64,000 nt of DNA, taken from the NCBI GenBank assembly GCA_963720925.1, contig CAVRHE010000011.1, positions 98,798 to 162,797 on the forward strand, read 5' to 3'. The notes under the pieces were generated by a model. That model made no database searches. It saw only the letters and a program-made list of their open reading frames with translations, and was not told the origin of the DNA. Below, in pieces: positions 5,229 to 58,128 of the stretch (its first letter is position 1; each line of letters begins with the position of its first letter). The translations under genes and the position numbers were made by a program. This DNA is from an uncultured Acidobacteriota bacterium. Lineage in GTDB: Bacteria; Actinomycetota; Acidimicrobiia; Spongiisociales; ZC4RG35.

Positions 5229-5320
5229 TCGGTCCTCCGGAGTCGATCGTCGAGGAAATCGAGTTTAAGGGGCGGTTTCCCGAGGAATACCTATCCGGGA
5301 TCGCTGGTTGGCGGAGCGCA

Positions 5321-7032: not shown

Positions 7033-7034
7033 CC

Positions 7035-7367
7035 TTGCAGATCACCTTGACGACCACTGGCCGGAAGACGAAAAAGCCTCATAGGGTCACTCTCTACGCC
7101 TATCCCGACGACGACCGCCTGGTAGTCGTCGGTTCTTTTGGGGGACATCCCACCGATCCCGACTGGGCGGCCAATCTGCGGAAAACGCCACTGGCAAGCG
7201 TGCGCCGGGGAGGTGAAGAGATCGAGTACCGGGTGGAGGAGGTCGACGGGCCGGAGCGGGACCGTCTGTGGAAACTGGTCACCGACGCTTTCCCTCTCTA
7301 TGGGACCTATCAGGGCCGCACCAAGCGGCTGATACCGCTCTTCGTTCTCGAGCCTGTCGGCGGCTAG
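7035..7367 (+). CDS. Nitroreductase-family deazaflavin (F420)-dependent oxidoreductase, DUF385-type, 110 aa.
   Basis: Short protein (TGRKTKKPHRVTLYAYPDDDRLVVVGSFGGHPTDPDWAANLRKTPLASVRRGGEEIEYRVEEVDGPERDRLWKLVTDAFPLYGTYQ) with the split-barrel PNPOx-like fold. Confidence 0.75.
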   Translation: MQITLTTTGRKTKKPHRVTLYAYPDDDRLVVVGSFGGHPTDPDWAANLRKTPLASVRRGGEEIEYRVEEVDGPERDRLWKLVTDAFPLYGTYQGRTKRLIPLFVLEPVGG

Positions 7368-7447
7368 AGAGGACCGGATCGAACACTGTGGATGATTGAC
7401 CGGGATCGGTGCTCGGCTGTGCTTTTATTGGCGGTCAGGAGGACTCA

Positions 7448-10249: not shown

Positions 10250-10645
10250 ATGTTGCGGTCGATGGAACACATCGGGGCCGGGGCCGAAGCGTGGAGCCCG
10301 TCGGGAACAGAGCATTTCACCGGGCTGGTATGGAACCGAAGACTGAGAGATTCCGAGGAAGGCATCACCATGATCGCCGTTCAGTTCGCACCGGGAGCAC
10401 GGAGTGACTGGCACAGTCATCCTGGGGGCCAACTCCTTTACGTGGTCTCCGGGTCGGGGCTCGTTCAGACCGAGGACGGATCGACAGTGCGGATCGCGAC
10501 AGGCGATGTCGTGCACGCACCTCCAGGAGAACGGCATTGGCATGGGGCGGGTATGGATTCGCCATTGATGCATCTCTCGCTGACCAGCGGTGGGCCGACC
10601 GCCTGGGAGGGAAAGGTCACCGACGAGGAATACGGTCGTCACTGA
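10250..10645 (+). CDS. Cupin_2 domain protein
   Basis: Cupin motifs with His ligands (GARSDWHSHPGGQLLYVVSGSGLVQTEDGSTVRIATGDVVHAPPGERHWHGA). It is divergent from the HNH gene and sits in a slightly lower-GC promoter region. Confidence 0.7.
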   Translation: MLRSMEHIGAGAEAWSPSGTEHFTGLVWNRRLRDSEEGITMIAVQFAPGARSDWHSHPGGQLLYVVSGSGLVQTEDGSTVRIATGDVVHAPPGERHWHGAGMDSPLMHLSLTSGGPTAWEGKVTDEEYGRH

Positions 10646-10678: not shown

Positions 10679-12226
10679 GTGACCACCACCAGCGCGCGAA
10701 CCGTCCGACTGGGGGCAACCGATTATCCGGTCGTGCTGCCCAGTCTGCGCGATCCGCGCCTGCATCTGGCCGGCGTCATCATCACCATCCACGTGCTGGG
10801 CCAGGTGGCCCTCGATTTCCGGGTTTCGGTTCCTCAGATCCTCGCCGCCATCCTCGCCTGCGCCGTCATCGAGGTGGCGCTCACCTTTCGTAAGACCAAA
10901 CAGATCGTTTGGCCGGCCAGCGCCATGCTCACCGGCAGCGGTGTCGCCCTGATCCTTCGCATCGTCGGTCAGGAGCGCGGAGACCACTGGACGTTGAACG
11001 GTTGGTACCTGTTCGCCGGGATCGCCGCCCTCTCGTTGCTCACCAAGTACTGGATCCGATATCGAGGCACCCACGTCTTCAACCCATCGAACGTCGGGCT
11101 GGTCGCAGCTTTCCTGGTTCTGGGAAGCGAGGTCATCGAGCCACTGGACTTCTGGTGGGCGCCTCTCGACTTCTGGATGGTCGCCGCTTACGCCGTCATC
11201 CTCGTCGGTGGCGTCCTCATCACCTCCCGCCTCCGCTTGCTCACCCTGGCCGCAGTGTTCTGGCTGACCCTTGCCGTCGGTCTCGGAGTGCTCGCTGCCT
11301 CGGGACACTGCATGACCGCGGCATGGGCTCTCCAACCCGTATGCGGGACCTACTTCTGGTCGGTGATCGTGGCTTCGCCGGAGGTGCTCATCTTCCTGTT
11401 CTTCATGATCACCGACCCCAAGACCATCCCAGAGGGCCGTGCGGCGCGGATTGCGTTTGCAGTGTGCCTGGCACTGGTCTGCACCCTGCTGATGGCGCCG
11501 CAGACCACAGAGTTCGGAGCCAAAGTGGGGTTGCTCGCCGGTCTCGTCGTGATGACACCACTTCGGTTCATCCTCGACCGTGTCTTCAAATCAGACAGGA
11601 TCGAGTCATTGGCCAAGTCGTCGACGAGTCGACCGGTCCGGGCCTTCGCCCCGGGCGCCGTCGTTGGAGCTCTCCTCGTCTTGGTGCCTCTGGCCATCGT
11701 GCTCGCCGGCGCCCCGGCGCGAAGCACTGCTGTGGCCGCCCCGGTCGCGTCTCCGCCGCCCGAGATCGAGATCGACCCGGCACAGCTTCCCGACGTCACC
11801 ATCAGCGCCGAGGCGGCAGCCTTGCAAGGCGAGGTCGACCCGAACGCCGTGGCCCTCGGCCTGGCCCAGGCACTCGCCGTGGAAGCCGAGGCGATCCGTC
11901 GCGCCGACACCTCGCTGTTGCGGTCGGCCGATGACGCGGAGCGGCTCGTCGAGATGGAACGGGTCGTCGAGCAGACGGCGACCAGTGGCGTACATGCAGT
12001 TCCCACCCACACGTTCGACTCGCTTCACGTCGACGTCGCTCCCACCGACGAGACACAGGACGCAGCCAGTCTCGGGCTGGTCGCAAAGGGGACGGTGGAG
12101 ACCATCACCTACGATGCCGCCGGCGTCGAGCAGGCCCGGGGCAGCGAGCCTTTTTCCAAGACGTTCGTCCTGCGGCCTGAGGTCGGGGACAGATGGCTGA
12201 TCGTCGCGGAGGTGGAGGATGGCTGA
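10679..12226 (+). CDS. Stand-alone NqrB/RnfD-family polytopic membrane protein (putative covalently flavinylated subunit-like protein). It has an extra TM helix and an extracytoplasmic C-terminal domain of about 170 aa.
   Basis: Two hallmark RnfD/NqrB motifs are present: HVFNPSNVGLVAAF (compare GQNPFNPA) and FLFFMITDPKTIP (compare ILTDPVT, whose Thr carries FMN in NqrB/RnfD). About 8 TM helices are followed by a helix VVGALLVLVPLAIVLAG and a soluble domain. No other rnf/nqr genes are nearby. Confidence 0.55.
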   Translation: MTTTSARTVRLGATDYPVVLPSLRDPRLHLAGVIITIHVLGQVALDFRVSVPQILAAILACAVIEVALTFRKTKQIVWPASAMLTGSGVALILRIVGQERGDHWTLNGWYLFAGIAALSLLTKYWIRYRGTHVFNPSNVGLVAAFLVLGSEVIEPLDFWWAPLDFWMVAAYAVILVGGVLITSRLRLLTLAAVFWLTLAVGLGVLAASGHCMTAAWALQPVCGTYFWSVIVASPEVLIFLFFMITDPKTIPEGRAARIAFAVCLALVCTLLMAPQTTEFGAKVGLLAGLVVMTPLRFILDRVFKSDRIESLAKSSTSRPVRAFAPGAVVGALLVLVPLAIVLAGAPARSTAVAAPVASPPPEIEIDPAQLPDVTISAEAAALQGEVDPNAVALGLAQALAVEAEAIRRADTSLLRSADDAERLVEMERVVEQTATSGVHAVPTHTFDSLHVDVAPTDETQDAASLGLVAKGTVETITYDAAGVEQARGSEPFSKTFVLRPEVGDRWLIVAEVEDG

Positions 12227-13405
12227 CAACCCGGTGATCACCATGCTTGGGCGCAGGCTCCGTCTGGCGGTCATTGGCGGCGGCCCGGGAAGCTTCATTG
12301 GGGACATGCATCGATCTGCCGCGCGTCTCGATGACCGTTATGAGTTGGTCGCCGGTGCCCTCTCTTCAGACCCGGAGCGCTCTCGCGCCGCCGGGGTCGG
12401 GCTCGGTATCGTCGAAGATCGGGCATATCCGGCCGCCATCGCCCTGCTCGAGGCTGAGGCCGCCCGGGCCGACGGCGCTGACGTGATCTCGATCATGACT
12501 CCCAACGACAGTCATCACGAGTACGCAGCGGCCGCCCTCGATCTCGGCTTCGACGTCATCTGTGACAAGCCGATCACCAACACGCTGGAGGAGGCACTCG
12601 ATCTGGTCAAGCGGGTGGAGCAGACCGGTCTCGTCTTTTGCCTAACCCACAACTACACCGGGTACTCGTTGGTCCGCCAGGCGAAAGCCATGGTCGCCGA
12701 CGGCCAATTGGGGGAGATCCGGCTCGTTCAGGTCGAATACGTCCAGGGTGGAAAGGCGAGCGAGAACGATCCAGATCCGGCCGGCGGGCTTCCGTGGCGA
12801 TACGACCCGGTGCGGGGTGGCCCGTCGTTGGTGATGGGGGACATCGGGACACATGCCCACAACCTGGCTCGATTCATCACGGGTCTCGAGGTGACCGAGG
12901 TCGCCGCCGAGGTCGGTGCCATCGTTCCCGGACGACTCGTCCATGACTACGCCGGGGCCTGCTTCGATTCGAGAACGGAGCCCGGGGATCGTTCTGGGTC
13001 ACCCAAGCTGCGGCAGGAGTCGAGAACGCGCTACGGATACGGGTCTCCGGGACCCGGGGCAGCGTCGAATGGCACCAGGAGCAGCCGATGCGTCTCCTCT
13101 TCACCCCATTGGCGGGCCCAGCGGAGTGGCGAACCCCAAACGGGCCGGGAACACTTCCCCTCGCCGCCCGCTCCACACGGATCGTCGCCGGACATCCGGA
13201 GGCCTTCCTGGAGGCGTTCGCCAACATCTACTCCGATGCGGCCGAGGCGATCGCGGCACGGCGCAGCGGCACCACACCCGACCCGCTGGCCCTCTATTTC
13301 CCCAACGCCATCGACGGTGCCGTCGGTCTCCGTTTCGTCGAAGCGGTCATCACCTCGAGCCAGGAAGGCGGCGTCTGGACCGACGCCACCCCAGACTTCC
13401 TCTAG
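12219..13405 (+). pseudogene. Gfo/Idh/MocA-family NAD(P)-dependent oxidoreductase with one frameshift near 12958, a missing C in a C-run.
   Basis: The N-terminal Rossmann part (LRLAVIGGGPGSFIGDMHRSAA...CDKPITNTLEEALDLV) is in frame 0. The C-terminal part (LLRFENGARGSFWVTQAAAGVENALRIRVSGTRGSVEWHQ...HPEAFLEAFANIYSDAAEAI) is in frame 2. The two parts are collinear. Confidence 0.8.
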
Positions 13406-14780
13406 CCGGTCATCGTCATGGCCCGGTCGGGCCGGAGCAGGAACGGTGGGAGGTAGCCGGGGATGTTGGAGAAGGGGAGCACATCCGGGTGCAGGTCGAT
13501 GCCGAGGGAATCCCTCATGAACTCACGCCGGGCCGATATGCGCCGCCACGCGTCCGGATAGCGATCGGCCATTCTCTCCCGCAACGACTCGTCCGCCAGA
13601 GCGATGCCGTCCTCGATGTTGGTGGTGAAGTATTCGGTGCCCGTTGCCGGGATGATGTCGACCTGAAGTGCCATACCCGAGGCCAGCTCGATGTCGGATC
13701 CGGCGACCGACGGGTGAGTTCACCCACTCGTCGAGATGTGATCTGATGACCCGGGTTGAGGAAGATGCCGAAGAACGGGTCACCGAGATGCCGGTCGATG
13801 ATCTCCTGGAGTGCCCCGCCCTTCTGACCGACATGGAGCGCTTCGTACCACTCGGCCACCGCCTCGAAATAGGGAGCGACCAGACGATCGACATAGTCGT
13901 CGATTTCTTCCGGCAGGTCATCGGGGCCTTCCGCCACGAACCCGGCTCGGCAGTTGAGGGCGCCCCAGATCCCGAAGGCGACGGTGAACCGGTCACCGCG
14001 CTCGATGGGCCGGTCGCCGGGGCTGAGCAAACCAAGAGACGCCCTGGGGCCGGCGGTCAGCATCAGGTGACACGAGAGCGGTGTCCCGTTCCATTCGAGC
14101 AGCCGGACCGCCTCTTGCTCGGTCAGGCCAGGGCGGAGCCCCTCGAGGACACGACGCACGCCGCTCGAGGTGTGACAGGCGGCCCACTCGTAGTAGGCGA
14201 GCTGGTCGACTTCGTTGACCACGCGGAGCCCGTCGGCCGCGCCGATGAGGATGTCCGCGGCATTTTCGACTGCGCCCTCCGACCCGGCGAGGCGGCGAAG
14301 CTCGTCGACGATGAAGGCGGGGAGGTCGATGATCCCGCTGTCTTCGAACACCTTCCATCCCACCACGCCGACCCTGCTTCCGGCGACTATCCCTTCCTGT
14401 CCCAGAATCTCGCCTAGGGGCAGAGACCGGTCGCGGGGCTGGCTGGGCAAACTGAAGTCCTGGTAGAGATGCCGCCGCATGGCGAGGGGAGCGGCGCCCG
14501 CCATTCCCCAGCACTCGTTTCCTACGAGGATCGCCGGCTCATGGTCATCGCCTACGACCAGGAGGGCCTCTTCGAACCTGGGGTCGAACCCGGTGAGGTA
14601 AGAGAGATTGGCGCTGTGCTCGCGGTCGGCGTACACCACAACCCGGTCGAATCCCCGCTCAGCTGCTCGCACGCGCAGACGCTCCATGCGATCTTGGTAG
14701 ATCGAGTCGGAGATGACCGGCATCGCATCGGGCATACCGAAATCCGGCAGCTCCACCTCGGTGAGACTGGCCCCGCTCAT
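13402..14780 (-). pseudogene. M24-family metallopeptidase (Xaa-Pro aminopeptidase / creatinase-like) with about two frameshifts near the 3' end (around 13690-13735).
   Basis: The N-terminal creatinase-like region and the pita-bread core are in one frame (…FGIWGALNCRAGFVAEG…GIFLNPGHQI). The C-terminus (ALQVDIIPATGTEYFTTNIEDGIALADESLRERMADRYPDAW...) is in another frame. Confidence 0.7.
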
Positions 14781-14784
14781 GACT

Positions 14785-16437
14785 TCATCCGTTCGGGTCG
14801 AAGGCGACTGCACGGTCGGCGTCACGCTCGATGATCGTCAGTTGGTTCGTGCTCACGTTGAGCCACCGCCCCTTCTCGCCATCAGGCCACTGCACCCGAA
14901 CCTCAACGCTATCCGCATCTCCGGCGCCGAAGTGGGCCCAACCCAGTTGCCCGCCGGCGTGCCCCCCACCCACGGTGACCTCTCGCTGCACCACGCGGTT
15001 CCCGACCTTCACCTCGATCCAGGACCCGATGCCGTCGACGTTTGGCGCCGGCTGCTGCAATCGGATTCCGACCCAATTCCCCATCGCCACAGGGGAGGCG
15101 GCGTCACCCCATCCGACGTTCCGCCAGAGCTTGATCTTCTCGCGCCGGTTCACCTCGACCAGATCGAGCATGCCATCGAGATTGAAGTCGGCGAGAGCGG
15201 CGCCCCGTGATCGAGCGAAGTCCACGATCCCGGCCTCCTCCGCCATCTCGGTGAAGCTCCCATCCGGGTTGGCGATGAGGAGGTTGTTGGGATCCCTGAC
15301 CGCATAGCCAGGCTGTGCCTCGACATTCCCTTTGGACACGAACAGGTCGACGAGGGTGTCGTTGTTGACGTCTTGGAACTCGGGATGCCAGGCAGTCGAG
15401 GGTGCCGCTGTGTCGCCAACATACGGTCGATGGGCGGTCAGCCCGCGCTCAAAGGCGATGTCGATGTAATTGGGCTGTGTCGGCCCATCCGCCAGGGTCT
15501 GCAACTTGTTGTCGCCCTGACTGGTGAGGAAGAACTCGGGGAGCCCGTCGCCGGTCACGTCGTGGCCGGCGATGCCCATCCCCCAGATCTGCATCGGCTG
15601 CCATCCCTCCTCTTCGGTGTACAGATCAGGGGCTTCGTCTGGCGAAATGCGCCAAAGCTGTTCCTGTCCGTTCCGGTAATAGTGCTGGTCGTTGGTCATG
15701 CGTAGATCACGACGACCCGATCGGTCCCAGTCGCTGAACAGGACCGACAAGGTGCACCAGCCCGGGGACAGGGTGATCGGCTCGACGTATCGATCGCCTT
15801 CGGGTCGGTACAAATAGTGGTCGGCGCAGGTACCGGACAGCTGGCCGTCCTCTGCCAGGTAATTGCCGAAGGCGAGCGTTGGCATCGCGCCATCGCCCTC
15901 CCACGTGGCGCTGAAGCCAACGGTCCAGTCATCCCGTGCGTCGAGGGACCAAGTCTCGTTGGCCCGCTCGAACGTGCAGTCCCCCCGCCCACGAAGCAAG
16001 ACGTCTTCGCCGAATCTGAGCACCGCCAGATCGGCGTGTTGGTCACTGTCGATGTCCAGCGGGTAGGCCCCGGTCACTCCGGTGAGATTGCTGGAGGGCC
16101 CATCCAGCAATTGTCCGAATCGAAGGGCTCCACCGATCGCACTGTCATTGTGATAGAGCCCGCTGGGATTGGTGCCTCCCGCCATGTATAGGTCGGAAAG
16201 TCCGTCTTCATCACAGTCGAGCACTGCGACGCCACCGCCGACGAAATACTCGAACTCGCCGTCGTACACATGGTCGACGCCTGATTCCGCTGATTCGTCG
16301 ACGAATCGGGGAGGTGGCGACGCGGCATCGGGCAGGTCGGATCCGAAGACGGCCACGGCTCCCGTTGCGAGCGCGCCGGCGATGACTGCCCCGGCTGCCA
16401 CACCGATGACGAGCCAGGCCCAGGCCCGGGCTGTCAT
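14785..16437 (-). CDS. CRTAC1-family / ASPIC-UnbV protein with FG-GAP/VCBS-like repeats. It is secreted or membrane-anchored.
   Basis: Intact, about 550 aa. An N-terminal hydrophobic anchor (WAWLVIGVAAGAVIAGALATGAVAVFG) is followed by repeated D-x-D-x-DG calcium-binding-like motifs (LDCDEDGLSDLYMAGG, DIDSDQHADLAV, DVNNDTLVDLFV, ADFNLDGMLDLVEVN). The C-terminus is UnbV_ASPIC-like. Confidence 0.65.
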   Translation of the reverse strand: MTARAWAWLVIGVAAGAVIAGALATGAVAVFGSDLPDAASPPPRFVDESAESGVDHVYDGEFEYFVGGGVAVLDCDEDGLSDLYMAGGTNPSGLYHNDSAIGGALRFGQLLDGPSSNLTGVTGAYPLDIDSDQHADLAVLRFGEDVLLRGRGDCTFERANETWSLDARDDWTVGFSATWEGDGAMPTLAFGNYLAEDGQLSGTCADHYLYRPEGDRYVEPITLSPGWCTLSVLFSDWDRSGRRDLRMTNDQHYYRNGQEQLWRISPDEAPDLYTEEEGWQPMQIWGMGIAGHDVTGDGLPEFFLTSQGDNKLQTLADGPTQPNYIDIAFERGLTAHRPYVGDTAAPSTAWHPEFQDVNNDTLVDLFVSKGNVEAQPGYAVRDPNNLLIANPDGSFTEMAEEAGIVDFARSRGAALADFNLDGMLDLVEVNRREKIKLWRNVGWGDAASPVAMGNWVGIRLQQPAPNVDGIGSWIEVKVGNRVVQREVTVGGGHAGGQLGWAHFGAGDADSVEVRVQWPDGEKGRWLNVSTNQLTIIERDADRAVAFDPNG

Positions 16438-16508
16438 GTTTGCCCCTCGTGGGTCGGCTCGACACAATGCCGCATGGGCAGATTGTGTCGAATGGAGGAG
16501 GCTATGAG

Positions 16509-17504
16509 GTGACGGACCCCGTCAGGTGGGGTGTGCTCGGCTGCGCCGACATCGCGGTGAGGAAGGTGATACCCGCGATGAACGGGTCGGAGTTGAGCTT
16601 TGTCACCGCCATCGCTTCGCGATCCTCGGAGCGGGCCCGGGCCACGGCAGACACCCTGGGCATTCCCCGATCCTACGGAAGCTACGAGGAACTGCTTAAT
16701 GACCCTGACATAGAGGCGGTCTACATCCCGTTGCCCAACCATCTCCATCCGGACTGGGCAATTGCTTCGGCCGAGGCGGGCAAGCACGTCCTGTGTGAGA
16801 AACCACTCGCCACGAGTAGCTCGGTGGCCAAGCAGATGATCCACGCGGCGGAGCGATCCGGTGTGAAGCTCATGGAAGCTTTCATGTACCGCCTCCATCC
16901 GCTCTGGATCGAGGTCCGCCGGCTCCTTGCCGAAGGAGCCGTGGGTGAGCTGCGCGCCATCCAGTCGTTCTTCTCCTATCACAACATCGACCCCGACGAC
17001 ATCCGGAACCGAGTCGACGCCGGCGGTGGATCTCTTCACGACATCGGTTGCTACCCGGTCAATGTCGCCCGAATGCTCTTCGATGCCGAGCCTTCCGACG
17101 TGATCGCCACCATTCGCAGGGATCCCGAGTTCGGCACCGATGTGCTGACTTCCGTGATGCTCGACTTCGATGGCCGCCATGCGGCTTTCACTTGCTCGAC
17201 CCAATTGGAGGACGACCAGAGAGTCCACATCTATGGGACGGCCGGTCGTCTCGTGGTGGAGATCCCGTTCAACATCCCGCCGGATCGTCCGACCCGGGTC
17301 CTGTTGGTGTCCGGTGGGGACCCCCCGGTCGACCCCAATGTGGTGGTTCATCAGGTTCCTGCGGCCGACCAGTACCGGGTGCAGGCGGACGCGTTCTCTC
17401 GCGCCATCCGTGACGACACACCGGTGCCAACTCCACCCCAGGACGCCCTAGCCAATATCGAGGTCATGGAGCGAATCTTCGCGGACGCCGCCGCGCGAGC
17501 CTGA
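16509..17504 (+). CDS. Gfo/Idh/MocA-family oxidoreductase. The start is uncertain: GTG 16509 after a GGAGGAGG site, or ATG 16467.
   Basis: Rossmann N-terminus (VRWGVLGCADIAVRKVIPAMNGSE...EAVYIPLPNHLHPDWAIASAEAGKHVLCEKP). The C-terminal domain is intact. Confidence 0.8.
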   Translation: MTDPVRWGVLGCADIAVRKVIPAMNGSELSFVTAIASRSSERARATADTLGIPRSYGSYEELLNDPDIEAVYIPLPNHLHPDWAIASAEAGKHVLCEKPLATSSSVAKQMIHAAERSGVKLMEAFMYRLHPLWIEVRRLLAEGAVGELRAIQSFFSYHNIDPDDIRNRVDAGGGSLHDIGCYPVNVARMLFDAEPSDVIATIRRDPEFGTDVLTSVMLDFDGRHAAFTCSTQLEDDQRVHIYGTAGRLVVEIPFNIPPDRPTRVLLVSGGDPPVDPNVVVHQVPAADQYRVQADAFSRAIRDDTPVPTPPQDALANIEVMERIFADAAARA

Positions 17505-18798
17505 GCCGGGTCACGCCGGACCGGGCGCGAGTGTGTCCAGCCGGGTCGGCGATGACCTCCGAGATGGCCAGCTCCGCCGCGCCGATCAGAGGGGCATCGG
17601 GCCCGAGCCCGCTGGCCGCGATATCGGCGATGTCACCCGGGGCGTCGAGTGCGCCGAGACGGGCGCCTTCGAAGACTGCTTTCTCCAGGAACGGGAAGAG
17701 AGGGTGATAGAACCCGCCGAGCACGACCAGTTGCGGGTTGAAGACGTTGATCAGGTTGCCGATCCCCAACCCGAGCCATCGCCCGATCTCGGCGAGGGCA
17801 TCGAGAGTCTTCTGGTCGCCGGCATCGGCCCTGGCGACGATCGTGTCCACGAGGCTCAGCCCGGTGACATTCGACGGGATCCCGGCGAGACGGGCCAGAG
17901 CTGCTTCTCCGGCTTCCGTCTCCCAGCAGCCGGTCGCGCCGCAGCGACAGAGATGACCGTCGGGGCTGATCAGGGTGTGCCCCGCCTCGCCCGCGTAGCC
18001 GGCCACCCCCAACATTGGCTTCCCGTCGTGGATGATCCCGGCGCCGATTCCGGCCTCACCCGAGATGTAGATGAGATGGGGTACCCCGGCACCCACTCCG
18101 CGCCGGAACTCGGCGAGGGCGCCGAGGTCGGCTTCGTTGGCGACGAGGACCGGGTCGCTCAGCCCCAGGGCGGTGGCGAGCATGTCACCGAGGGCCACGT
18201 TCCTCCAGCCGAGGTTGGGGGCGAGCTGGACGAACCCGTCGGATCTCCGGGTGACCCCGGCGACACCGACGCCGACCCCGGTCAGGATCGAGTCGGCGGG
18301 CAGTCCTCCCAGCAGCTCGCCGGACAGGCCGGCGACGACTTCGACCGTCTCGGCCGCCGACTCGCCACGGGGCCGCGCCACCCGGACTTGTTCGTAGACA
18401 TGACCACCGAGGCCAACCGTGGCGACTGCCACCGAGTCGACCGACAACTCGATCGATAGAACCACGGCGCCCTGGGGCCGGGTGCTCACCATTGGGGAGG
18501 GCCGTCCCGGACCCGAGGGGGCGACCGCCGGGCCCTCCTCGACGAGGCCGAGGTTGGTCAGCTCGCCGATGAGGTCGGCGATGGTGGAGCGGTTGAGCCC
18601 GGTGGTGGCAGTCAGCTCGGAGCGAGAGACCGGTCCGTGAAGGTGGAGGCTCTCCAGGACCACCGCCAGATTGTGGCGGCGCAGCTCGTCGGCGGCGACG
18701 CCCTTGGGCCGGTGATGGGCATCCCTCCCGGCCGTTATCTGGGTGCGGTTCAAGTGTCTCCCGGGAGGCCTGTTGGGTGCTGGGACCTTATGCCGCAA
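17464..18798 (-). CDS. ROK-family transcriptional regulator (XylR/NagC-like). It is divergent from the sugar ABC operon.
   Basis: N-terminal wHTH (RRHNLAVVLESLHLHGPVSRSELTATTGLNRSTIADLIGEL). ROK sugar-kinase-like core with the CxCGxxGC zinc motif (CRCGATGCWE). The true start is probably downstream of 18798, for example GTG about 18699 or TTG about 18753, because a palindrome overlaps the maximal ORF start. Confidence 0.8.
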   Translation of the reverse strand: MRHKVPAPNRPPGRHLNRTQITAGRDAHHRPKGVAADELRRHNLAVVLESLHLHGPVSRSELTATTGLNRSTIADLIGELTNLGLVEEGPAVAPSGPGRPSPMVSTRPQGAVVLSIELSVDSVAVATVGLGGHVYEQVRVARPRGESAAETVEVVAGLSGELLGGLPADSILTGVGVGVAGVTRRSDGFVQLAPNLGWRNVALGDMLATALGLSDPVLVANEADLGALAEFRRGVGAGVPHLIYISGEAGIGAGIIHDGKPMLGVAGYAGEAGHTLISPDGHLCRCGATGCWETEAGEAALARLAGIPSNVTGLSLVDTIVARADAGDQKTLDALAEIGRWLGLGIGNLINVFNPQLVVLGGFYHPLFPFLEKAVFEGARLGALDAPGDIADIAASGLGPDAPLIGAAELAISEVIADPAGHTRARSGVTRLRLARRRPRRFAP

Positions 18799-18808
18799 TT
18801 TGTTGCGG
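18793..18808. promoter_or_regulatory. Perfect 6-4-6 inverted repeat CCGCAAtttgTTGCGG. It is a candidate operator for the adjacent ROK regulator.
   Basis: Seen directly in the divergent intergenic region between the ROK regulator and the xylF-like gene. Confidence 0.4.
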
Positions 18809-18887
18809 GGTCAAACATATGACGGTTATGCTCGCATCGGTCGGCGTGGGGTCGTTATGGCCGTTCGCGTCGACTCGTACGGATATT

Positions 18888-18909
18888 TGCCAACCCTTCG
18901 GGGTGGCAA
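18888..18909. promoter_or_regulatory. Near-palindrome TTGCCAACCCttcgGGGTGGCAA just upstream of the xylF-like RBS. It is a second candidate operator or hairpin.
   Basis: Seen in sequence 24-45 nt upstream of ATG 18933. Confidence 0.3.
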
Positions 18910-18932
18910 CCGGAGGAGGAAGGAACAACAAG

Positions 18933-20129
18933 ATGAAAAGACGCCTAATGGCGTTGGTAGCCGTCATCGCCCTCGTCATCGCCGCTTGTGGTGGTGAAGA
19001 AGGAGGAGACACCACCGAAGCTGGTGCCGACACGACGGCAGCCGGAGCGACCACGACGGTGGCCGAGGCGACCACGACGGCAGCGGGTGCCAGCACCACT
19101 GCCGCTGCCGGAGGCGACGGCGATTGCCTCGTCGGCATGTCGTGGAACAACTACAACGAAGAGAGATGGGCCAAGCACGATGAGCCCGCAATCCAGGCAG
19201 CCCTAGAGGCCGGCGGATGCGCGTACACGTCGACAGATGCCGGTTCATCCGAGGAGCAGCAGATTGCCGACGTCGAGAACCTGATCAACCAGGGAGCTGA
19301 CGTCGTCATGATCCTGGCCCAGAACACGCAGGCGATCCTGCCCGCGGTTCAGGCCGCCACTGATCAGGGAATCCCGGTCATCGCCTATGACCGCCTCATC
19401 GAGGACGCGAACACCTTCTACGTCAGCTTCGACAACGTCCTGGTGGGTCAGCTGATGGCCGAGGTCGTCTTCGATCTGGTGCCGACGGGGAACTACTTCA
19501 TCATCAAGGGCAACGGTGCCGACGCCAACTCCGACTTCCTCCGTGAGGGGATCGGGTCTGTCATCGATGCCGCGGCCGAGGCCGGTGACATCACCATCCT
19601 CGAGGAGGACTACACCGACAACTGGGATCCGGCGCTCGCTCAGACCACGGTGGAACAGTGGCTGAGCGCGCACGACAACGACGTGCAGGCCATCGTCTCC
19701 GAGAACGACGGAATGGCCACCGGCGCAGCCGCCGCCCTCGATGCCCAGGGCCTCCTCGGCACGGTGGTGTTGTCGGGCCAGGACGCCGACGTCGCCGCCC
19801 TCCAGCGGGTGGCAGCCGGGACGCAGGCTGTGTCGGTGTGGAAGGACGCCCGTGCGCTGGGCACGGCTGCCGGTGAGGCTGCCGTGCAGTTGGCCGGCGG
19901 CGCCGCCCTCGCCGATGTCGAGGGAACGGCTGAGTTCATCTACACGAACAAGGAATCCGGTGCAGAGACGGTACTGACCAGCATCCTGCTGACACCGATC
20001 CCGATCACCCAGGAGAACCTCCAGGAGGTGGTCGATGCGGAGTGGATCACGGTCGAGGAGCTCTGCTCGGTACCGGGGGGACTGTCGGCTCCTGCGCCTC
20101 CTGACCAATCGCTGAGGCGAAATCGATGA
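18933..20129 (+). CDS. xylF: Sugar ABC transporter substrate-binding lipoprotein (xylose-binding XylF-like, periplasmic-binding-protein type I)
   Basis: RBS GGAGGAAGG precedes it. Signal with lipobox (LVAVIALVIAACGG) and a Thr/Ala-rich linker. PBP-I core (DCLVGMSWNNYNEERWAKHDEPAIQAALEAGG...GADVVMILAQN...GIPVIAYDRLIEDANTFYVSFDN). Confidence 0.85.
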   Translation: MKRRLMALVAVIALVIAACGGEEGGDTTEAGADTTAAGATTTVAEATTTAAGASTTAAAGGDGDCLVGMSWNNYNEERWAKHDEPAIQAALEAGGCAYTSTDAGSSEEQQIADVENLINQGADVVMILAQNTQAILPAVQAATDQGIPVIAYDRLIEDANTFYVSFDNVLVGQLMAEVVFDLVPTGNYFIIKGNGADANSDFLREGIGSVIDAAAEAGDITILEEDYTDNWDPALAQTTVEQWLSAHDNDVQAIVSENDGMATGAAAALDAQGLLGTVVLSGQDADVAALQRVAAGTQAVSVWKDARALGTAAGEAAVQLAGGAALADVEGTAEFIYTNKESGAETVLTSILLTPIPITQENLQEVVDAEWITVEELCSVPGGLSAPAPPDQSLRRNR

Positions 20130-20131
20130 TG

Positions 20132-20163
20132 TATTGCGCCCCCGGTTCATCGGGGGCGCAATA
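20132..20163 (+). terminator. Perfect 13-bp stem-loop (TATTGCGCCCCCG-gttcat-CGGGGGCGCAATA) 3 nt after the xylF stop. It is an intercistronic attenuator or mRNA-stabilising hairpin between the SBP and permease genes.
   Basis: Seen in sequence. It is followed by a pyrimidine-rich stretch (cgttcccgttctct). Hairpins of this kind are common in ABC operons, where they set the stoichiometry of SBP versus membrane components. Confidence 0.55.
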
Positions 20164-20191
20164 CGTTCCCGTTCTCTAATGTGGTGAGCTC

Positions 20192-21512
20192 ATGAGCGTG
20201 GTGGAGGCTCCGCCGACACAGTCGGACACTCTCGAACCGGGATCGCGCCGGTCGCTGGGATCGTATCTGCGGGACAACGAGATCGATACCCGAATGGTGG
20301 GCATGATCGCTGTCCTCCTGGCGATCTGGCTTGTCTTCCATTTCCTGTCCGGGGGAACGTTCATTACGCCCCGCAATCTGTGGAACCTCTCGGTGCAGAC
20401 CTCGACGATCGCGATCATGGCCACCGGGATGGTGCTCGTCATCGTTTCCCGCAACATCGATCTCTCGGTCGGCTCCATGGTGGGGACTGTGGGCATGGTG
20501 ATGGCCATGCTCCAGGTCGAATGGCTCCCACCACTGATGGGCTCGGGCAACTCTTGGATTTGGCTCGTCACGCTCGCCATCGGCGTGGTCTTGGGAGCTC
20601 TCATCGGCGCCTTCCAGGGATCGATAATCGCCTACGTCGGCGTCCCCTCATTCATCGTCACGCTGGGCGGACTGCTGGTGTGGCGGGGGTTTGCCTGGCT
20701 CACCGCCAGTGGCCGGACCATCGCCCCGATGGACGCCACGTTCCAGCTCCTCGGAGGTGGATCCAGCGGGTCGCTGGGGGAGACGGGTAGCTGGATCGTC
20801 GGCGGTGTCGCCTGTGTCGGGATCGTTGCTCTTCTCGTCATGGGTCGTCGTCGTCGTCGCAAGTTCGGCTTTCGGCTTCGCCCGACGTGGCTCGACGTCG
20901 TCCTCGGGGTCCTGGGCTGCGCCGTCGTCCTCGCCGCGGTCTGGGTGATGAACAGCTACTACCTGCCGGAGAACCTGGCCATCCAGTACGCCGAGGAGCA
21001 TGACATCCCGATTCCCGAAGGTGGCCTTCAAATCCCGCTCGGAATCCCTTATCCGGTGCTGATCTTGATCGGGGTCACCCTGGTCATGAGCTTTGTCACC
21101 AACCGGCTCCGCTTCGGTCGCTATGTCTTTTCCCTCGGGGGAAATCCAGAGGCAGCCAACCTGGCCGGGATCAAGACCAAGCGCACCCTCGTCAGAGTCT
21201 TCATGACCATGGGGATCTTGGTGGCGATATCGGGCGCGGTCTCAATCGCGCGTCTCAACGCTGCGGTGAGCGGTCTCGGCACGTTGAACGAGCTCTATGT
21301 CATCGCCGCTGCAGTCATTGGCGGCACATCCCTGTCGGGAGGGATCGGGACCATTCCCGGAGCCATCCTCGGCGCGCTCGGTCATGCAGTCGCTGCAATC
21401 CGGCATGGTCCTCATCGGGGTCGGCGCTCCGGTGCAGGACGTCGTGCTCGGAGTCACCTTGGTGGTCGCGGTCGCCATCGACACCATCTATCGGAGGAGG
21501 GCGGCCCGATGA
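20192..21512 (+). pseudogene. xylH: Sugar ABC transporter permease (XylH-like) with one frameshift near 21380.
   Basis: A body of about 10 TM helices is in one frame (…[35 protein letters not shown]…). The C-terminus ([43 protein letters not shown]) is in another frame and ends with an ATGA overlap onto the ATPase gene. Confidence 0.8.
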
Positions 21513-22306
21513 CGATGCCCTCCCAAAACGGCGGCACCCCCCTCGTCGAGATGAGGGACATGAGTGTCAGCTTCGGCGGCGTGCACGCGGTGAAGGACGT
21601 CACCATCGACCTCCACCAGGGGGAGATCCTCGGTTTGGTCGGTGGCAACGGCGCCGGCAAGTCGACCCTGATCAAGACCCTGGCCGGAGCCCAGAAGGCG
21701 GACTCTGGCGAGATTTTCATCGACGGCGAGCCGGTGAGCATCACCACACCTCGTGACGCCAAGTCATACGGGATCGAGACCATCTATCAGACCCTGGCAC
21801 TGGCCGACAACCAGGACGCCCCGAGCAACATGTTCCTCGGCCGGGAGCTGATGACCCGCTGGGGCACCCTCGACGACTCGGCGATGGAGGATGCCACCAG
21901 GAAGATCATGGCGAGGCTCAACCCGAGGTTCCAGAAGTTCAAGGAACCGGTGTCCACTCTGTCCGGTGGCCAGCGCCAATCGGTGGCCATCGCCCGGGCA
22001 GTCCACTTCAACGCCAGGATCCTGATCATGGACGAGCCCACCGCCGCCTTGGGCCCGGCCGAGACGGAACAGGTCCGTGAGTTGATGCGGCAGCTGCAAT
22101 CGGAGGGCCTCGGCATCATCATGATCAGCCACGATATCCATGACGTGTACGACCTCGCCGATCGGATCTCCGTCATGCTCCAGGGCAAGCTGGTGGGGAC
22201 GGTGAACAAGGACGACGTCACCATGGACGAGGTCCTGGCCATGATCATCATCGGCAAGAAGCCCGAAGAGGTCACCACCAAGGAGCTGGAACAGCTCCAC
22301 GGCTGA
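21509..22306 (+). CDS. Sugar ABC transporter ATP-binding protein with a single ABC domain, intact.
   Basis: Walker A ([10 protein letters not shown]), signature ([14 protein letters not shown]), Walker B (ILIMDEP), H-loop (MISHD). Confidence 0.85.
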
Positions 22307-22468
22307 GCCCGGCCGACACCCGATCCCAACCCGTCGGGAGAAGACGCGGCCAAACCCTGTGAACCAGCTGGTGAACGTATAGCCGCATACGCTTGCAGGC
22401 CTACGGTCCCATGAGGCTATCTTCCAGGATTCCGGGGCAACATGATTGCTCGACGAGGAGGAAACGTC

Positions 22469-23592
22469 ATGCCAGCAGACACCGTGCAATTGCTCAGCCC
22501 TTCGCGAAGGAACTTCCTCAAGGCGCTCGGGATGACCGCGGCGATCGGGCTCATCAACGCCTGCACCAACGACGGGGCCACCGCCACCACGGCTGGGGGC
22601 TCCGGCGGGACGGGGAGCACCGCCGCCACCGGCGGCTCGGGTGCGGGGAATTTCCCCGAGACGCCCGAGTGGAATTTCGTCTTCGTCAACCATGTCACCA
22701 CCAACCCGTTCTTCGTGCCCACGGTGTACGGGATCGAGGACGCCGCGGCCATCCTCGGCATCCCTACTCCCCAATGGACCGGGTCGGAGGACGCCGACAA
22801 CGGCGGCGATGGTCAACGCCATGGAAGCCGCCATTGCCGGCCAAGCCGACGGCATCGGGGTCTGCCTGGTCGATCTCGAGGCATTCAACGGGCCCGACCG
22901 ACGAGGCCCTTGCCGCAGGAATCCCGGTCATCGCCTACAACGCCGACACCCCACCCGGCAACCCGAACAACCGACTCTGCTACGTCGGTCAGGATCTATA
23001 CGGGTCGGGCTTCGAGATGGGCAATCGCATCGTCGAGCTCGTCGGATCCGGGAAGGTGGCGCTGTTCATCGCCACCCCGGGGCAGCTCAACATCCAGCCC
23101 CGCATCGATGGCGCCATGGACGCCATCGCTGAGTCGGGGGCCGACATCGAGGCGATCGACATCGCCACCGGCGCCGCGCTGGAGGAAGAGTTGAGCACGG
23201 TCGAGGCGTGGTATCTGGGCAACCAGGACGCCACTGGCATGTTCGCCGTCGATGCCGGCAGCACCCAGGCCGTAGGCCAGGTGGTCCGGGACCAGAACGC
23301 CCGGGACAACGGCCTGGCGGGCGCCGGCGGGTACGACCTGTTGCCGGAGACGGTGGAACTGGTCTCAGAGGGAGTGCTCGACTTCACCATCGACCAGCAG
23401 CCTTATCTGCAGGGGTTCCTCCCCACTGTCTACCTCTATCTGTACAAGCTCTCGGGCGGGGTCGTCACACCTCCGGAGACCAACACCGGTCTGGTGTTCC
23501 TCGACTCGTCGTCCGCCCAGTTGTTCCTGGAGACGGCGAGCCGGTTCGAAGGCGATGCAGAAGAACAGGCGATAGTCGAGCCCGTAGGCTGA
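22469..23592 (+). pseudogene. Second sugar ABC substrate-binding protein (PBP type I) with a twin-arginine/lipoprotein signal. It has two frameshifts, near 22800 and near 22895.
   Basis: RBS GAGGAGG precedes it. Tat motif SRRNFLKALGMTAAIGLINAC. The core is split over three frames (NFVFVNHVTTNPFFVP... / AAMVNAMEAAIAGQADGIGVCLVDLEAFNGP / TDEALAAGIPVIAYNADTPPGNPNNRLCYVGQD...), which are collinear. Confidence 0.75.
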
Positions 23593-23601
23593 CACACATA
23601 G

Positions 23602-24612
23602 ATGACTGACACTGCTGTCGCACCGCCCCGGCCCCAGACCATCTGGGGCCGGGTCGGTGACTTTCTGGTGCGACGGCCGGAGTCGACCATCGCCTTGGTG
23701 GCGTTGGCGCTCGGGGCCTATTTCGCGGTGGTCAACCCGGCGTTCCTGACCACGGCCAACATCCGGGTCATCTCCCAGTACATGATCGCCACCGCGATCC
23801 TTGCCGCTGGCCAGGTCATGCTCCTGATCAGCGGGGAGATCGACCTGTCGATGGGCAATGTCTATTTCATGACCCCGTTCCTGGTCTTCTTCGCCAGCGA
23901 GGCCGGTCTCGTTCTTCCCCTCGCCATCCTGGTTGGCGTGCTTGGAGCCGGGGTGGTGGGCTATCTCAACGGGGCGATAAGCCTCGGGTTCGGCATCCCG
24001 TCCTTCATCGTCACCCTGGGCATGGGGTTCGTGATCAACGGATTCACTCTCAACATCTCGGATGGGTTTCCCAAGCGCGTCCCCTCCACCGGAGTCGGGG
24101 CCGCGATCTTTGGAGACGCCAACTTCTCCGGGTTGATGTGGGTGATCATCATCGTGATCGCGATGCATCTGATCCTCAACCACTCCCGATGGGGGATCTA
24201 TACGGTTGCAGTCGGTGGCAACCCGCTGGGAGCTGCCGAAGCCGGTGTCCCCAGCCGGAGCATCAAGATGCGCAACTTCATCCTCGCCGCAATGCTGGCC
24301 GGCTTCGCCGGGGTGATCGAAGGGATCCGCGTGGGCTCGTTCGACCCGGGCGCCGGCGTGGCCGGGACCAAGGTTTTCCTGTCGGTGGCAGCCGCGGTGA
24401 TCGGTGGCACCCTTCTCTCCGGAGGGTCGGGGACCATCATCGGCGCCTTCTTCGGTGCCCTCGTCCTGGCCATCCTGCAAGACGGGTTCAATCTGGAAGG
24501 AGTGAGTGCCTTCACCTTCACCATGGTCCTGGGTGGCGCGATCATCCTGGCCATGATCCTCAATTCGCTGGCGAACAAGGCCCGGGTCAGATCACAGAGC
24601 GCCCGATTATGA
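23602..24612 (+). CDS. Sugar ABC transporter permease (ribose/xylose-type, BPD_transp_2), intact.
   Basis: 336 aa, polytopic. Conserved motif GGNPLGAAEAGVPSRSIKMRNFILAAMLAGFAGVIEG. Confidence 0.85.
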   Translation: MTDTAVAPPRPQTIWGRVGDFLVRRPESTIALVALALGAYFAVVNPAFLTTANIRVISQYMIATAILAAGQVMLLISGEIDLSMGNVYFMTPFLVFFASEAGLVLPLAILVGVLGAGVVGYLNGAISLGFGIPSFIVTLGMGFVINGFTLNISDGFPKRVPSTGVGAAIFGDANFSGLMWVIIIVIAMHLILNHSRWGIYTVAVGGNPLGAAEAGVPSRSIKMRNFILAAMLAGFAGVIEGIRVGSFDPGAGVAGTKVFLSVAAAVIGGTLLSGGSGTIIGAFFGALVLAILQDGFNLEGVSAFTFTMVLGGAIILAMILNSLANKARVRSQSARL

Positions 24613-26872: not shown

Positions 26873-26905
26873 GCTTCACCCCTCAGCATGATCCACGGCG
26901 ACGGA

Positions 26906-58063: not shown

Positions 58064-58128
58064 GTTGCCGGAGCCATTGGCTCCCGGCGCTCTTCAAGCG
58101 TTTCGAGAAGAAACAGAGGAGTAGACCG

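Follow-up and report, generated by a model that had tools for sequence, protein, structure and literature searches.

A self-standing RnfD/NqrB-like membrane protein with a predicted outer NTF2-like domain and recurrent links to FG-GAP/ASPIC propellers and sugar-uptake genes

To our knowledge, RnfD and NqrB are otherwise found only within six-subunit ion-pumping redox complexes and in one two-subunit derivative. The riboflavin/Na+ pocket of NqrB has T162, N203, F342 and D346 among its ligands (PMC10643135), and N124 and D248 have been described for the corresponding pocket of Clostridium tetanomorphum RnfD (PMC9588780). The two-subunit derivative, called the NQR/RNF-like system, uses an NqrB/RnfD-like transmembrane (TM) protein without the flavinylated Thr, for which a one-way transmembrane electron transfer has been proposed; the defining features of the system are a PF00175 domain at the cytosolic C-terminus, a partner of the NqrC/RnfG type that is flavinylated, and an ApbE context (Meheust 2021, PMC8238504; Huang 2024, PMC11334425).

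The window, i.e. the whole 64-kb stretch of DNA analysed here, carries a gene (Table 1) whose product had been described in a first-pass annotation as an NqrB/RnfD-family protein that stands alone and bears an added extracytoplasmic domain, a description that profile alignment with hhalign, fold comparison with Foldseek and the predicted topology all upheld. The open reading frame is intact and aligns end to end with 515-aa homologues of 90-92% identity; tandem paralogues were not found. More than 3000 full-length homologues exist. Clustered at 50% identity, the family makes up about 1,900 groups; it occurs in more than 500 species-level genomes, for the most part MAGs of uncultured Acidimicrobiia from soil and of Chloroflexota type. 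The family is a widespread but unstudied membrane module, and the earlier remark that such proteins are poorly characterised is right for it. Some homologues carry the automatically assigned names 'RnfD' or 'NqrB' in the databases.

Table 1. Features of the RnfD/NqrB-like gene and its surroundings (positions in the window)
Feature	Position	Strand	Details and basis
Small cupin gene	10250..10645	+	33 nt upstream of the RnfD-like gene, same strand; Pfam Cupin_2
RnfD/NqrB-like ORF	10679..12226	+	GTG start, 515 aa plus stop, C-terminal NTF2-like domain
RnfD/NqrB-homologous 10-TM core	10724..11611	+	aa 16-311; hhalign, Foldseek
FNPSN motif	11078..11092	+	aa 134-138; N135 equivalent to NqrB N203 and C. 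tetanomorphum RnfD N124 (alignments)
IEPLD, outward-facing loop	11135..11149	+	aa 153-157; E154 at the flavinylated-Thr position (hhalign register)
Outward loop SGHC...PVC	11309..11344	+	Cys pair C211 to C222, H210; co-variation in alignment
FFMITDPKT motif	11399..11425	+	aa 241-249; F242 and D246 equivalent to NqrB F342 and D346; D246 to C. tetanomorphum RnfD D248
Eleventh TM helix	11633..11707	+	aa 319-343, cytoplasm to outside; AF2 helix, hydropathy
Predicted extracytoplasmic NTF2-like (Tim44/ARC6-like) domain	11774..12223	+	aa 366-515; AF2, Foldseek
Gfo/Idh/MocA oxidoreductase GFO1	12219..13405	+	start overlaps the RnfD-like stop by 8 nt; Pfam
Cytoplasmic M24/creatinase-like protein	13405..14780	-	conserved neighbour; about 458 aa in relatives
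FG-GAP/UnbV_ASPIC beta-propeller protein	14785..16437	-	membrane-anchored; Pfam
Sugar-utilisation genes	16467..24612	.	second Gfo/Idh/MocA, ROK regulator, CUT2-type sugar ABC transporter; Pfam

Homology and fold of the membrane core

Alignment with hhalign against a mini-alignment of diverse RnfD and NqrB sequences, rebuilt from printed alignments, gave a match over 269 columns with 96.9% probability (E 1.4e-10). A homologue search from E. coli RsxD returned only sequences of at least 84% identity and was unsuitable for a profile, and hhalign against RsxD alone covered the N-terminal half only, at 7.7% probability. For the structure, AF2 prediction with 21 close homologues led to a pLDDT of about 45 in the TM domain, and confidence was raised by an alignment of 57 family sequences (lowest identity 34%), which was also the basis of the residue counts and led to a model of the 515-aa protein with pLDDT 90.8 and pTM 0.87. 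When this model was searched with Foldseek, every one of the 14 best PDB matches was a chain of RnfD or NqrB, the lowest E being 1.1e-4. They were led by RnfD 9eri_D, 8rbq_D and 7zc6_D and NqrB 7xk3_B, for which E lies between 1e-4 and 4e-4 and the target TM-score is 0.58-0.63 for the three RnfD chains and 0.48 for NqrB. A profile search of the PDB similarly gave RnfD and NqrB as the sole sequence matches at E <= 0.05, weak and confined to the region of the TDP motif, and a single-sequence search of the PDB with the 515-aa protein gave noise only.

The first-pass annotation had named the Pfam family NQR2_RnfD_RnfE (PF03116) as a check, with a score below threshold as grounds for rejection. Formally this is what was seen, although the more sensitive comparisons above do establish homology: the protein fell short, with 17.7 bits against a gathering threshold of 27.7 (E 0.0025; aa 50-273 aligned to model positions 40-264). 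Six family members (P0131, P0150, P0173, P0188, P0198 and P0236) pass this threshold with 29-37 bits. A search of NCBIfam at E <= 0.01 gave no match, including to TIGR01946 rnfD (cut-off 207 bits), for which the relative P0150 reached 21 bits only. Because PF03116 stays below threshold and NCBIfam is silent, the superfamily homology rests on hhalign and on the fold: a core of ten TM helices in two inverted five-helix halves that can be aligned over its whole length with RnfD (7ZC6_D, 8AHX_D, 9ERI_D; E. coli RsxD) and shares the fold of NqrB (7XK3_B, 8A1T_B). Conserved positions common to RnfD include SAxLTG, K, FNP(A/S), FFxxTDP and the acidic YP[ED]G-equivalent positions, in addition to the Asn/Asp residues of the riboflavin/Na+ pocket. 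The core is also the most conserved part of the protein: roughly 20 of its residues never vary, and a good number of these are polar and intramembrane. The gene product is thus a true but distant, self-standing member of the RnfD/NqrB superfamily.

Pocket residues, FMN position and outer domain

Both motifs that had been read as signatures of an FMN-carrying subunit, FNPSN and FFMITDPKT, are indeed present, but not with that meaning. Judged from the alignments, FNPSN and FFMITDP correspond to the Asn/Asp pocket in which NqrB and RnfD hold riboflavin and Na+, with N135 and D246 as its Asn and Asp, and not to the site of FMN attachment. T162, G198, N203, A205, F342 and D346 of NqrB correspond to T85, G130, N135, S137, F242 and D246 here, whereas NqrB N200 is replaced by His132 and the N-terminal quinone-site region of NqrB does not align. 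N135, P136, N138, F242, D246 and P247 are invariant in all 57 sequences and T85 is kept in 54 of them. T85, N135, S137, F242 and D246, which make up the centre of the pocket, are strictly retained, as are the conserved acidic residues E65, E278 and D/E300. All riboflavin hydrogen-bonding positions of NqrB, including the backbone positions as well as T85 and F242, are kept or conservatively changed.

The position of the covalent FMN gave the opposite picture. The flavinylated T187 of RsxD ('ATPLD') aligns with hhalign to E154, and this position is occupied by E (38), D (12), N (5) or S (2) among the 57 sequences and never by T, which speaks against the FMN-carrying subunit of the first-pass annotation. 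Nor could the flavinylated Thr be located within TDPKT, as had been suggested, since the equivalent of T187 is E154 and TDPKT is placed on the cytoplasmic half of the membrane by the positive-inside count. Reading of the 515-aa sequence revealed no D-x-x-(S/T)-x-A-T type flavinylation motif elsewhere, a T236-type FMN site as in NqrB is missing, and the extracytoplasmic loops that bear FMN in RnfD are about 30 and 20 aa shorter here according to hhalign. On this alignment evidence the protein has lost the covalent-FMN site and is not flavinylated. The loss fits with the finding that rnf, nqr, ApbE and FMN_bind genes, and hence RnfA/B/C/E/G and the other Nqr subunits, are missing from essentially all large open reading frames of the window (Pfam), which extends to the 64 kb what had first been noted for the near surroundings. 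ApbE, FMN_bind or Rnf/Nqr subunit genes were likewise not found in any annotated homologue locus.

Following the core, the AF2 model and hydropathy confirmed the extra TM helix and the roughly 170 residues behind it that had been noticed before; neither this helix nor an outer domain is present in RnfD. The N-terminus is predicted to lie inside and the C-terminal domain outside, because Lys and Arg are biased to the predicted inner loops (22 against 4 on the outer loops, counted on the AF2 helices, with seven in aa 296-321 just before the eleventh helix), a Cys pair occurs in an outer loop, and C-terminal fusions are to domains that are secreted when separate. C211 and C222 are both present in 41 sequences and both absent in 16, with no mixed cases, and probably form a disulfide; H210 in the same loop is near-invariant (55/57). 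A catalytic redox-active disulfide was rejected as the pair is missing in 16 of the 57 members, and bis-His haem binding was rejected as H29 and H38 are not invariant.

The structure prediction proposed for the C-terminal domain led to an NTF2-like alpha+beta cone consisting of two helices (H388-408 and H420-436) followed by four long strands, with pLDDT 75-95 for the domain as a whole and mostly 85-97 for these helices and strands. Foldseek matched it to the IMS domains of ARC6/PARC6 and the C-domain of Tim44 (5U9O, 5D9R, 3QK9, 2CW9) with E values of 1e-3 to 1e-2, and also to SnoaL-like proteins, with target TM-scores of 0.6-0.7 overall. In ARC6/PARC6 and Tim44 the same cone stands right after a TM helix, but identity is 13-16% and functional residues are not shared, so the likeness is one of fold only. 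A sequence-family match was not obtained from Pfam, and a search with the domain alone returned seven fragments, all of the same family and none of another architecture. Few of its residues are invariant.

One may ask whether the protein belongs to the NQR/RNF-like system, with a flavinylated NqrC/RnfG-like partner encoded elsewhere that would deliver the FMN. In the TM subunit of that system, too, the flavinylated Thr is missing, and a site for a non-covalent flavin has presumably been kept. However, the C-terminal PF00175 NAD-binding domain is missing according to Pfam, the C-terminus is NTF2-like and predicted outside the cell instead of cytosolic, FG-GAP/ASPIC proteins take the place of the usual partners, and neither an FMN_bind partner nor ApbE is encoded in the window or the annotated homologue loci. 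As PF00175 gave no match and genes with PF04205 or PF02424 are missing from the window and from the homologue loci, membership in this PF00175-type system was rejected, and we regard it as very improbable.

Gene neighbourhood and fusions

The small cupin gene is probably co-transcribed with the RnfD-like gene and recurs upstream in the relatives L006-L008, L010, L012 and L059 and in the fused homologue P0188. Directly downstream, Gfo/Idh/MocA genes occur in only a subset of the relatives, and GFO1 of the window is frameshifted near 12968 as seen by tblastn, which also located a frameshift near 13750 in the M24-like gene; both may be due to assembly errors or to pseudogenisation. The latter lies within 6 kb of the RnfD-like gene in 13 of 14 close loci and the FG-GAP/ASPIC gene in 12 of 14. 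In addition, at least 23 of 28 long homologues carry the FG-GAP/ASPIC propeller and the RnfD-like domain fused in a single chain; other fused outer domains are a NosD-like beta-helix and BNR, the unit of TM core and NTF2-like domain being constant, and in P0219 and P0179 an MFS sugar transporter is fused. A fusion to a recognised redox domain was not present among the long homologues scanned with Pfam. The same sugar-utilisation genes as in the window flank relatives and fused homologues, and the kinds of genes found nearby hint at oxidative pathways of rhamnose or pentose type. Thus, 'no partner subunits', as the protein had been characterised, holds for Rnf and Nqr partners but misses a recurrent tie, by genomic position and by fusion, to FG-GAP/ASPIC propellers and sugar-uptake genes. 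Among the more distant unfused members, about two thirds lack an FG-GAP gene at a distance of up to 6 kb; the genes around them differ from locus to locus, and de novo clustering of neighbours at loci of 51-56% identity gave no conserved partner. For the FG-GAP and M24-like proteins, comparison with the PDB and NCBIfam led to no functional assignment, a promoter and terminator scan at the locus gave no informative signal, and literature searches for a link between RnfD and FG-GAP, or for the function of UnbV/ASPIC in bacteria, found nothing functional.

This neighbourhood bears on the idea that the protein is a displaced member of a canonical Rnf or Na+-NQR complex whose other genes lie elsewhere in the genome, for which the superfamily resemblance and the occasional automated names are the only arguments. 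The flavinylated Thr is missing, the extra TM helix and outer domain are conserved in more than 500 species-level genomes, PF03116 stays below its gathering score with no match to TIGR01946, and the family has its own conserved neighbourhood that is not of the Rnf type. These four observations effectively refute a displaced subunit, which is scarcely credible. The proteins are instead a separate large family in which the inner pocket was kept, the covalent FMN discarded, and an outer NTF2-like domain and propeller partners acquired.

From the fusions it might also be argued that the core is a degenerate RnfD relic which tethers glycan-binding or glycan-cleaving outer domains near sugar importers, with the NTF2-like domain as a docking module. 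The diversity of the fused outer domains beside a constant TM and NTF2-like unit, the paucity of invariant residues in the NTF2-like domain and the structural matches to ARC6/PARC6, whose NTF2-like domains are protein-docking modules, are consistent with such a scaffold. Nevertheless, the invariant and often polar intramembrane residues of the core go far beyond the needs of an anchor, the FG-GAP protein of the window already has its own N-terminal hydrophobic anchor, and many family members are without any outer partner, so we consider a mere anchor improbable.

Possible functions

From the conserved pocket and the recurrent neighbours, we tentatively propose a riboflavin-based module for the movement of electrons or ions across the membrane, which would serve an extracytoplasmic, carbohydrate-related partner, although we hold this with less than even confidence. 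The protein would bind riboflavin non-covalently in the membrane and act as a small transmembrane electron conduit, possibly coupled to cations. On the cytoplasmic side it could be linked to the menaquinone pool, in parallel to NqrB, where riboflavin hands electrons to quinone, or to a dehydrogenase such as the overlapping Gfo/Idh/MocA protein. On the outer side, loop residues (E154, D157, W159, W160, H210 and W216) might build a site together with the NTF2-like domain and with the propeller protein; the last of these would probably act on or bind a carbohydrate, which the adjacent transporter would then import. A comparable architecture exists in membrane-bound quinoprotein (PQQ) glucose dehydrogenase, which combines a quinone-reducing TM domain with an outer beta-propeller and is encoded among sugar-catabolic genes; the likeness is in architecture only, as sequence and fold are unrelated, and we know of no FG-GAP/ASPIC propeller that binds PQQ or any redox cofactor.

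An extracytoplasmic redox role that depends on a flavin, with riboflavin bound non-covalently, is possible. Since a Na+ site has been proposed for this same Asn/Asp pocket in RnfD and NqrB, conservation of the pocket is no proof of a flavin. Moreover, with the outer FMN gone, no recognised cofactor would span the distance between an inner riboflavin and the outside, we know of no redox role for FG-GAP/ASPIC, NosD-like beta-helix or BNR domains, Gfo/Idh/MocA follows downstream in some relatives only, and distant unfused members often lack FG-GAP. A minimal one-protein module that connects the quinone pool or a cytoplasmic dehydrogenase via riboflavin with an outer site, with or without a cation, is unlikely as a specific form of the proposal.

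A non-redox explanation, in which the RnfD/NqrB fold with its two inverted five-helix repeats works free of flavin beside the sugar importer and the propeller, either as a channel for cations (Na+/H+) or in cation-coupled transport or energisation, is somewhat unlikely. N135, D246, E65, E278 and D/E300 match residues implicated in Na+ binding or translocation in RnfD/NqrB, the outer FMN site is gone, and neither a redox partner nor a redox fusion was found. The tight link to MFS sugar transporters, fused in two homologues, and the solitary distant members, as expected of a self-sufficient membrane protein, point in the same direction. On the other hand, the preservation of the riboflavin hydrogen-bonding positions would be unexplained, we know of no stand-alone channel function of this fold outside Rnf and Nqr, and a second sugar transporter seems redundant as a bona fide transporter always adjoins.

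If the proposed one-protein redox reading is true, the family would represent an Rnf-derived, ApbE-independent and probably carbohydrate-directed extracytoplasmic oxidoreduction in monoderm soil bacteria and offer a first functional handle on bacterial ASPIC/CRTAC1-like propellers; a redox-active family would mean that one subunit of a pump was pared down to an autonomous electron wire across the membrane for which ApbE is not needed. If an ion or solute pathway is correct, the RnfD fold would be able to function in the absence of flavins. In both cases, the FG-GAP/ASPIC (CRTAC1-like) propellers of bacteria, themselves unstudied, are tied to sugar utilisation and to a partner in the membrane. 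In one locus, a gene for a DM13 protein, a domain with a proposed role in electron transfer, is located directly upstream of the RnfD-like gene.

RnfD/NqrB homology and predicted flavin sites

The first-pass annotation described the RnfD-like protein as an orphan, FMN-carrying member of the NqrB/RnfD family. In the PF03116 search proposed there, the protein scored 17.7 bits, formally below the Pfam gathering score of 27.7 bits and hence the outcome named there as a refutation, and an NCBIfam search gave no match. In a profile search of the PDB, RnfD and NqrB chains were the only matches at E <= 0.05 (8ahx_D, E 0.0023; 7zc6_D, E 0.037; 7xk3_B, E 0.05). When the profile of the family's transmembrane region was compared by hhalign with a small set of aligned RnfD/NqrB sequences (that of E. 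coli RsxD and others that were rebuilt), aa 16-311 matched RsxD 3-350 over 269 columns with 96.9% probability and E 1.4e-10. The AlphaFold2 model (57 diverse homologues; pLDDT 90.8, pTM 0.87) had RnfD or NqrB chains as all of its 14 best PDB matches in Foldseek (best E 1.1e-4, target TM-score up to 0.63), and several family members pass the PF03116 threshold on their own. Therefore, despite the sub-threshold score, the protein is a genuine but divergent branch of the RnfD/NqrB superfamily, as had been claimed. A homologue search returned more than 3000 relatives, the best 120 of them all full-length (about 505-560 aa) and mostly from Acidimicrobiia MAGs; 515-aa metagenome proteins matched end to end with 90-92% identity, and a scan of one genome per species detected the family in at least 531 genomes.

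FNPSN (aa 134-138) and FFMITDPKT (aa 241-249), previously read as FMN-carrier signatures, are indeed present and among the most conserved positions of the family. Riboflavin in V. cholerae NqrB is liganded by T162, the G198 backbone, N200, N203, the A205 and F342 backbones and D346 (PMC10643135); in C. tetanomorphum RnfD, N124 and D248 flank riboflavin and are also the proposed Na+ site, with T153 carrying the covalent FMN (PMC9588780). These pocket residues align to T85, G130, H132, N135, S137, F242 and D246, with N135, F242 and D246 invariant (57/57 family members) and T85 and S137 each found in 54/57. As the riboflavin and Na+ residues map onto them, FNPSN and FFMITDP are, judged by alignment, motifs of a putative riboflavin/cation pocket and not of an FMN-attachment site. 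SAxLTG, K123, E65 and D/E300 are further RnfD/NqrB hallmarks that have been kept, as has E278, the acidic position of YP[ED]G.

The flavinylated Thr occurs as T187 in 'SQATPLD' of RsxD and within 'TTATPL' in clostridial and Acetobacterium enzymes. By hhalign, T187 aligns to Glu154 in 'VIEPLD'; confidence is low in this stretch of the alignment, with the register supported by P-L-D, which both sequences share. The part of NqrB with T236 lies outside the rebuilt sequence used. Position 154 is E, D, N or S in the family but never T, and the flanking extracytoplasmic loops lack about 30 and 20 residues relative to those of RsxD. Given Glu154 and the shortened loops, the sequence indicates that ApbE cannot use this protein as a substrate at the canonical position, contrary to the proposed FMN-carrying role. 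This fits with the absence of ApbE nearby: as annotated for the surroundings of the gene, a Pfam scan covering nearly every large ORF in the 64-kb window detected no rnf, nqr, ApbE or FMN_bind genes.

Outer domain, gene neighbourhood and fusions

The AlphaFold2 model shows ten core helices; after them come a short amphipathic helix at 305-314, TM helix 11 at 319-343, a linker rich in Pro and Ala and, at 366-515, a compact alpha+beta domain, in agreement with the additional helix and extracytoplasmic domain described in the first pass. Predicted loops carry 22 Lys/Arg on the inner side, seven of them just before TM11, versus 4 on the outer side, which argues for a predicted topology with the N-terminus inside and loops 149-164 and 208-222 and the C-terminal domain outside. 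C211 and C222 of loop 208-222 co-vary perfectly (both in 41 sequences, neither in 16), as expected of an extracytoplasmic disulfide. TDPKT was placed towards the cytoplasmic half of the membrane, against a periplasmic position of its Thr. Structure prediction of the C-terminal domain yielded an NTF2-like fold, resembling the ARC6/PARC6 intermembrane-space domains and the Tim44 C-terminal domain (Foldseek); few of its residues are invariant, and a search with the domain alone detected no sequence relatives outside the family.

On three long contigs with close homologues, the upstream side is variable and the downstream side conserved, comprising a Gfo/Idh/MocA gene, a convergent pair encoding an FG-GAP/UnbV_ASPIC protein and a ~458-aa protein (no Pfam match, distantly M24/creatinase-like), a second Gfo/Idh/MocA gene and a CUT2 sugar ABC transporter. 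Neighbours were scored within 6 kb at loci flanked by 4 kb or more on each side. At >=57% identity to the window's protein (n=14), FG-GAP/ASPIC was found in 12 loci, M24-like in 13, Gfo/Idh/MocA in 14 and a sugar-binding protein in 8; at 51-56% identity (n=39) the counts were 14, 8, 8 and 10, with neighbours otherwise unconserved. Loci were grouped by identity and not by phylum because several MAG records carry taxon labels that seem inconsistent. The labels 'uncultured Acidobacteriota', 'Chloroflexia' and 'Actinomycetes' conflict among near-identical or related contigs (L009, which is the same contig as L001, and other MFD loci), and phylum-level statements from record titles are unreliable. 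GFO1, the window's first downstream Gfo/Idh/MocA gene, overlaps the RnfD-like stop by 8 nt with its start and is directly 3' in a subset of loci only. The window's FG-GAP protein carries a hydrophobic anchor at its N-terminus and is therefore outward-facing.

The link to FG-GAP proteins is made physical by gene fusions. Within the top 150, 28 representatives are 600 aa or longer. FG-GAP/ASPIC repeats occur in at least 23 of these, usually following the NTF2-like domain in the chain. Other fused outer domains are a NosD-like beta-helix (P0123) and a BNR_2 propeller (P0152); in P0154 and P0188, vanadium-haloperoxidase-like domains (VCPO_2nd, DUF6851; PAP2-like) follow the FG-GAP/ASPIC propeller. 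An MFS sugar transporter is fused N-terminally in P0219 and, weakly, in P0179; the 1484-aa P0219 ORF, on a 5.4-kb contig, is a genuine triple fusion or else an artefact of read-through. Loci of fusion proteins encode sugar ABC or MFS transporters, Gfo/Idh/MocA, SDR, cupin, FGGY kinase and sugar-acid dehydratase. A DM13-domain gene ends 2 nt before the P0152 gene, whose stop is overlapped by an MFS Sugar_tr gene by 4 nt; an electron-transfer role has been proposed for DM13 domains. The earlier statement of no partner subunits thus stands for Rnf/Nqr genes, but not in view of the FG-GAP/ASPIC neighbours and fusions.

Possible function and closest systems

Among described systems, the nearest is the two-subunit NQR/RNF-like one, which is without the flavinylated Thr; its defining features are a PF00175 domain in the cytosol, an NqrC/RnfG-like partner that is flavinylated, and an ApbE context (PMC8238504, PMC11334425). 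The missing Thr is common to its TM subunit and the RnfD-like protein, whereas the latter has no PF00175 domain, and neither the partner nor ApbE was found in the window or the annotated homologue loci. Membership in this system, and likewise displacement from a canonical Rnf/Nqr complex (an option raised in the first pass), are disfavoured, as the defining features failed. Most database entries of the family read 'hypothetical protein' and no literature linking RnfD/NqrB homologues with FG-GAP/ASPIC proteins was found, in line with the view that such stand-alone proteins are poorly characterised; the family is a distinct, widespread architecture within the superfamily.

The family combines an RnfD-type core, by alignment devoid of the covalent FMN site and retaining the putative riboflavin/cation pocket, with an outward NTF2-like domain and a recurrent tie to outer beta-propeller/beta-helix domains and sugar-uptake loci. 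A non-covalent flavin, probably riboflavin, may reside in the membrane and connect the cytoplasmic side with an outer site that would be formed by the conserved outer loops, NTF2-like domain and propeller. Its cytoplasmic partner could be menaquinone, by analogy to NqrB, where electrons go from riboflavin to quinone, or a dehydrogenase that docks there. We put this flavin-based link forward tentatively, at less than even chance, because the conserved pocket residues coincide with the proposed Na+ site, the scheme offers no outer cofactor and the fused domains include no known redox domain. The leading alternative, a pathway for cations or solutes that works without flavin, is rated only slightly lower. 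A scaffold role is improbable; the very strong conservation of polar residues inside the membrane speaks against it.

Frameshifts and other features of the window

Compared to L001 homologues, GFO1, the M24-like gene and glucose-6-phosphate dehydrogenase are split over two or three frames, which suggests indel errors of long-read assembly or locus decay with pseudogenes; the RnfD-like ORF is spared. G+C is about 65% throughout.

Coordinates of the RnfD-like gene, window features and genes at fusion loci
Feature	Sequence	Position	Strand	Remark
Glucose-6-phosphate dehydrogenase	window	1801-3227	+	split frames
Luciferase-like monooxygenase, NADPH-dependent FMN reductase, F420H2-dependent quinone reductase	window	5216-7367	+	cluster
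Secreted-looking protein	window	7409-8905	+	two PG_binding_1, C-terminal fasciclin; kept upstream in L001, L005
DUF222 + HNH endonuclease	window	8914-10164	-	just upstream of cupin/RnfD-like genes
RnfD-like gene	window	10679-12226	+	GTG start, 515 aa, intact
GFO1	window	12219-13405	+	frame switch near 12968
M24-like gene	window	13405-14780	-	frame switch near 13750
BPD_transp_2 permease + ABC_tran ATPase	window	20180-22306	+	one ORF
Second ABC_tran gene	window	24933-25400	+	seems truncated
FGGY kinase, xylose-isomerase-like TIM barrel	window	25291-27955	-	adjoin CUT2 transporter
Methionine synthase (MetH)	window	58000-59139, 59081-61606	+	overlapping ORFs
P0219	L090	774-5228		MFS sugar transporter + RnfD-like core + FG-GAP/ASPIC propeller
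DM13-domain gene	L088	7199-7999
P0188	L091	8001-12119		propeller + vanadium-haloperoxidase/PAP2-like fusion

In MetH, S-methyl_trans falls in one ORF while the second ORF encodes Pterin_bind, B12-binding and Met_synt_B12, probably through another frameshift; the oddities of the sugar ABC transporter reflect either unusual fusions or additional errors of frame. The FGGY kinase and xylose-isomerase-like genes, accompanied by rhaM and a DeoR regulator in the L003 equivalent, suggest a rhamnose-type or related deoxy-/pentose-sugar catabolic locus. The DUF222/HNH gene, whose L001 counterpart is split into two small ORFs, is perhaps a mobile or selfish element located at a variable junction. Another F420H2_quin_red gene is found some 1.5 kb upstream of P0123 (L086), which may be coincidence as this family is abundant in Actinomycetota.
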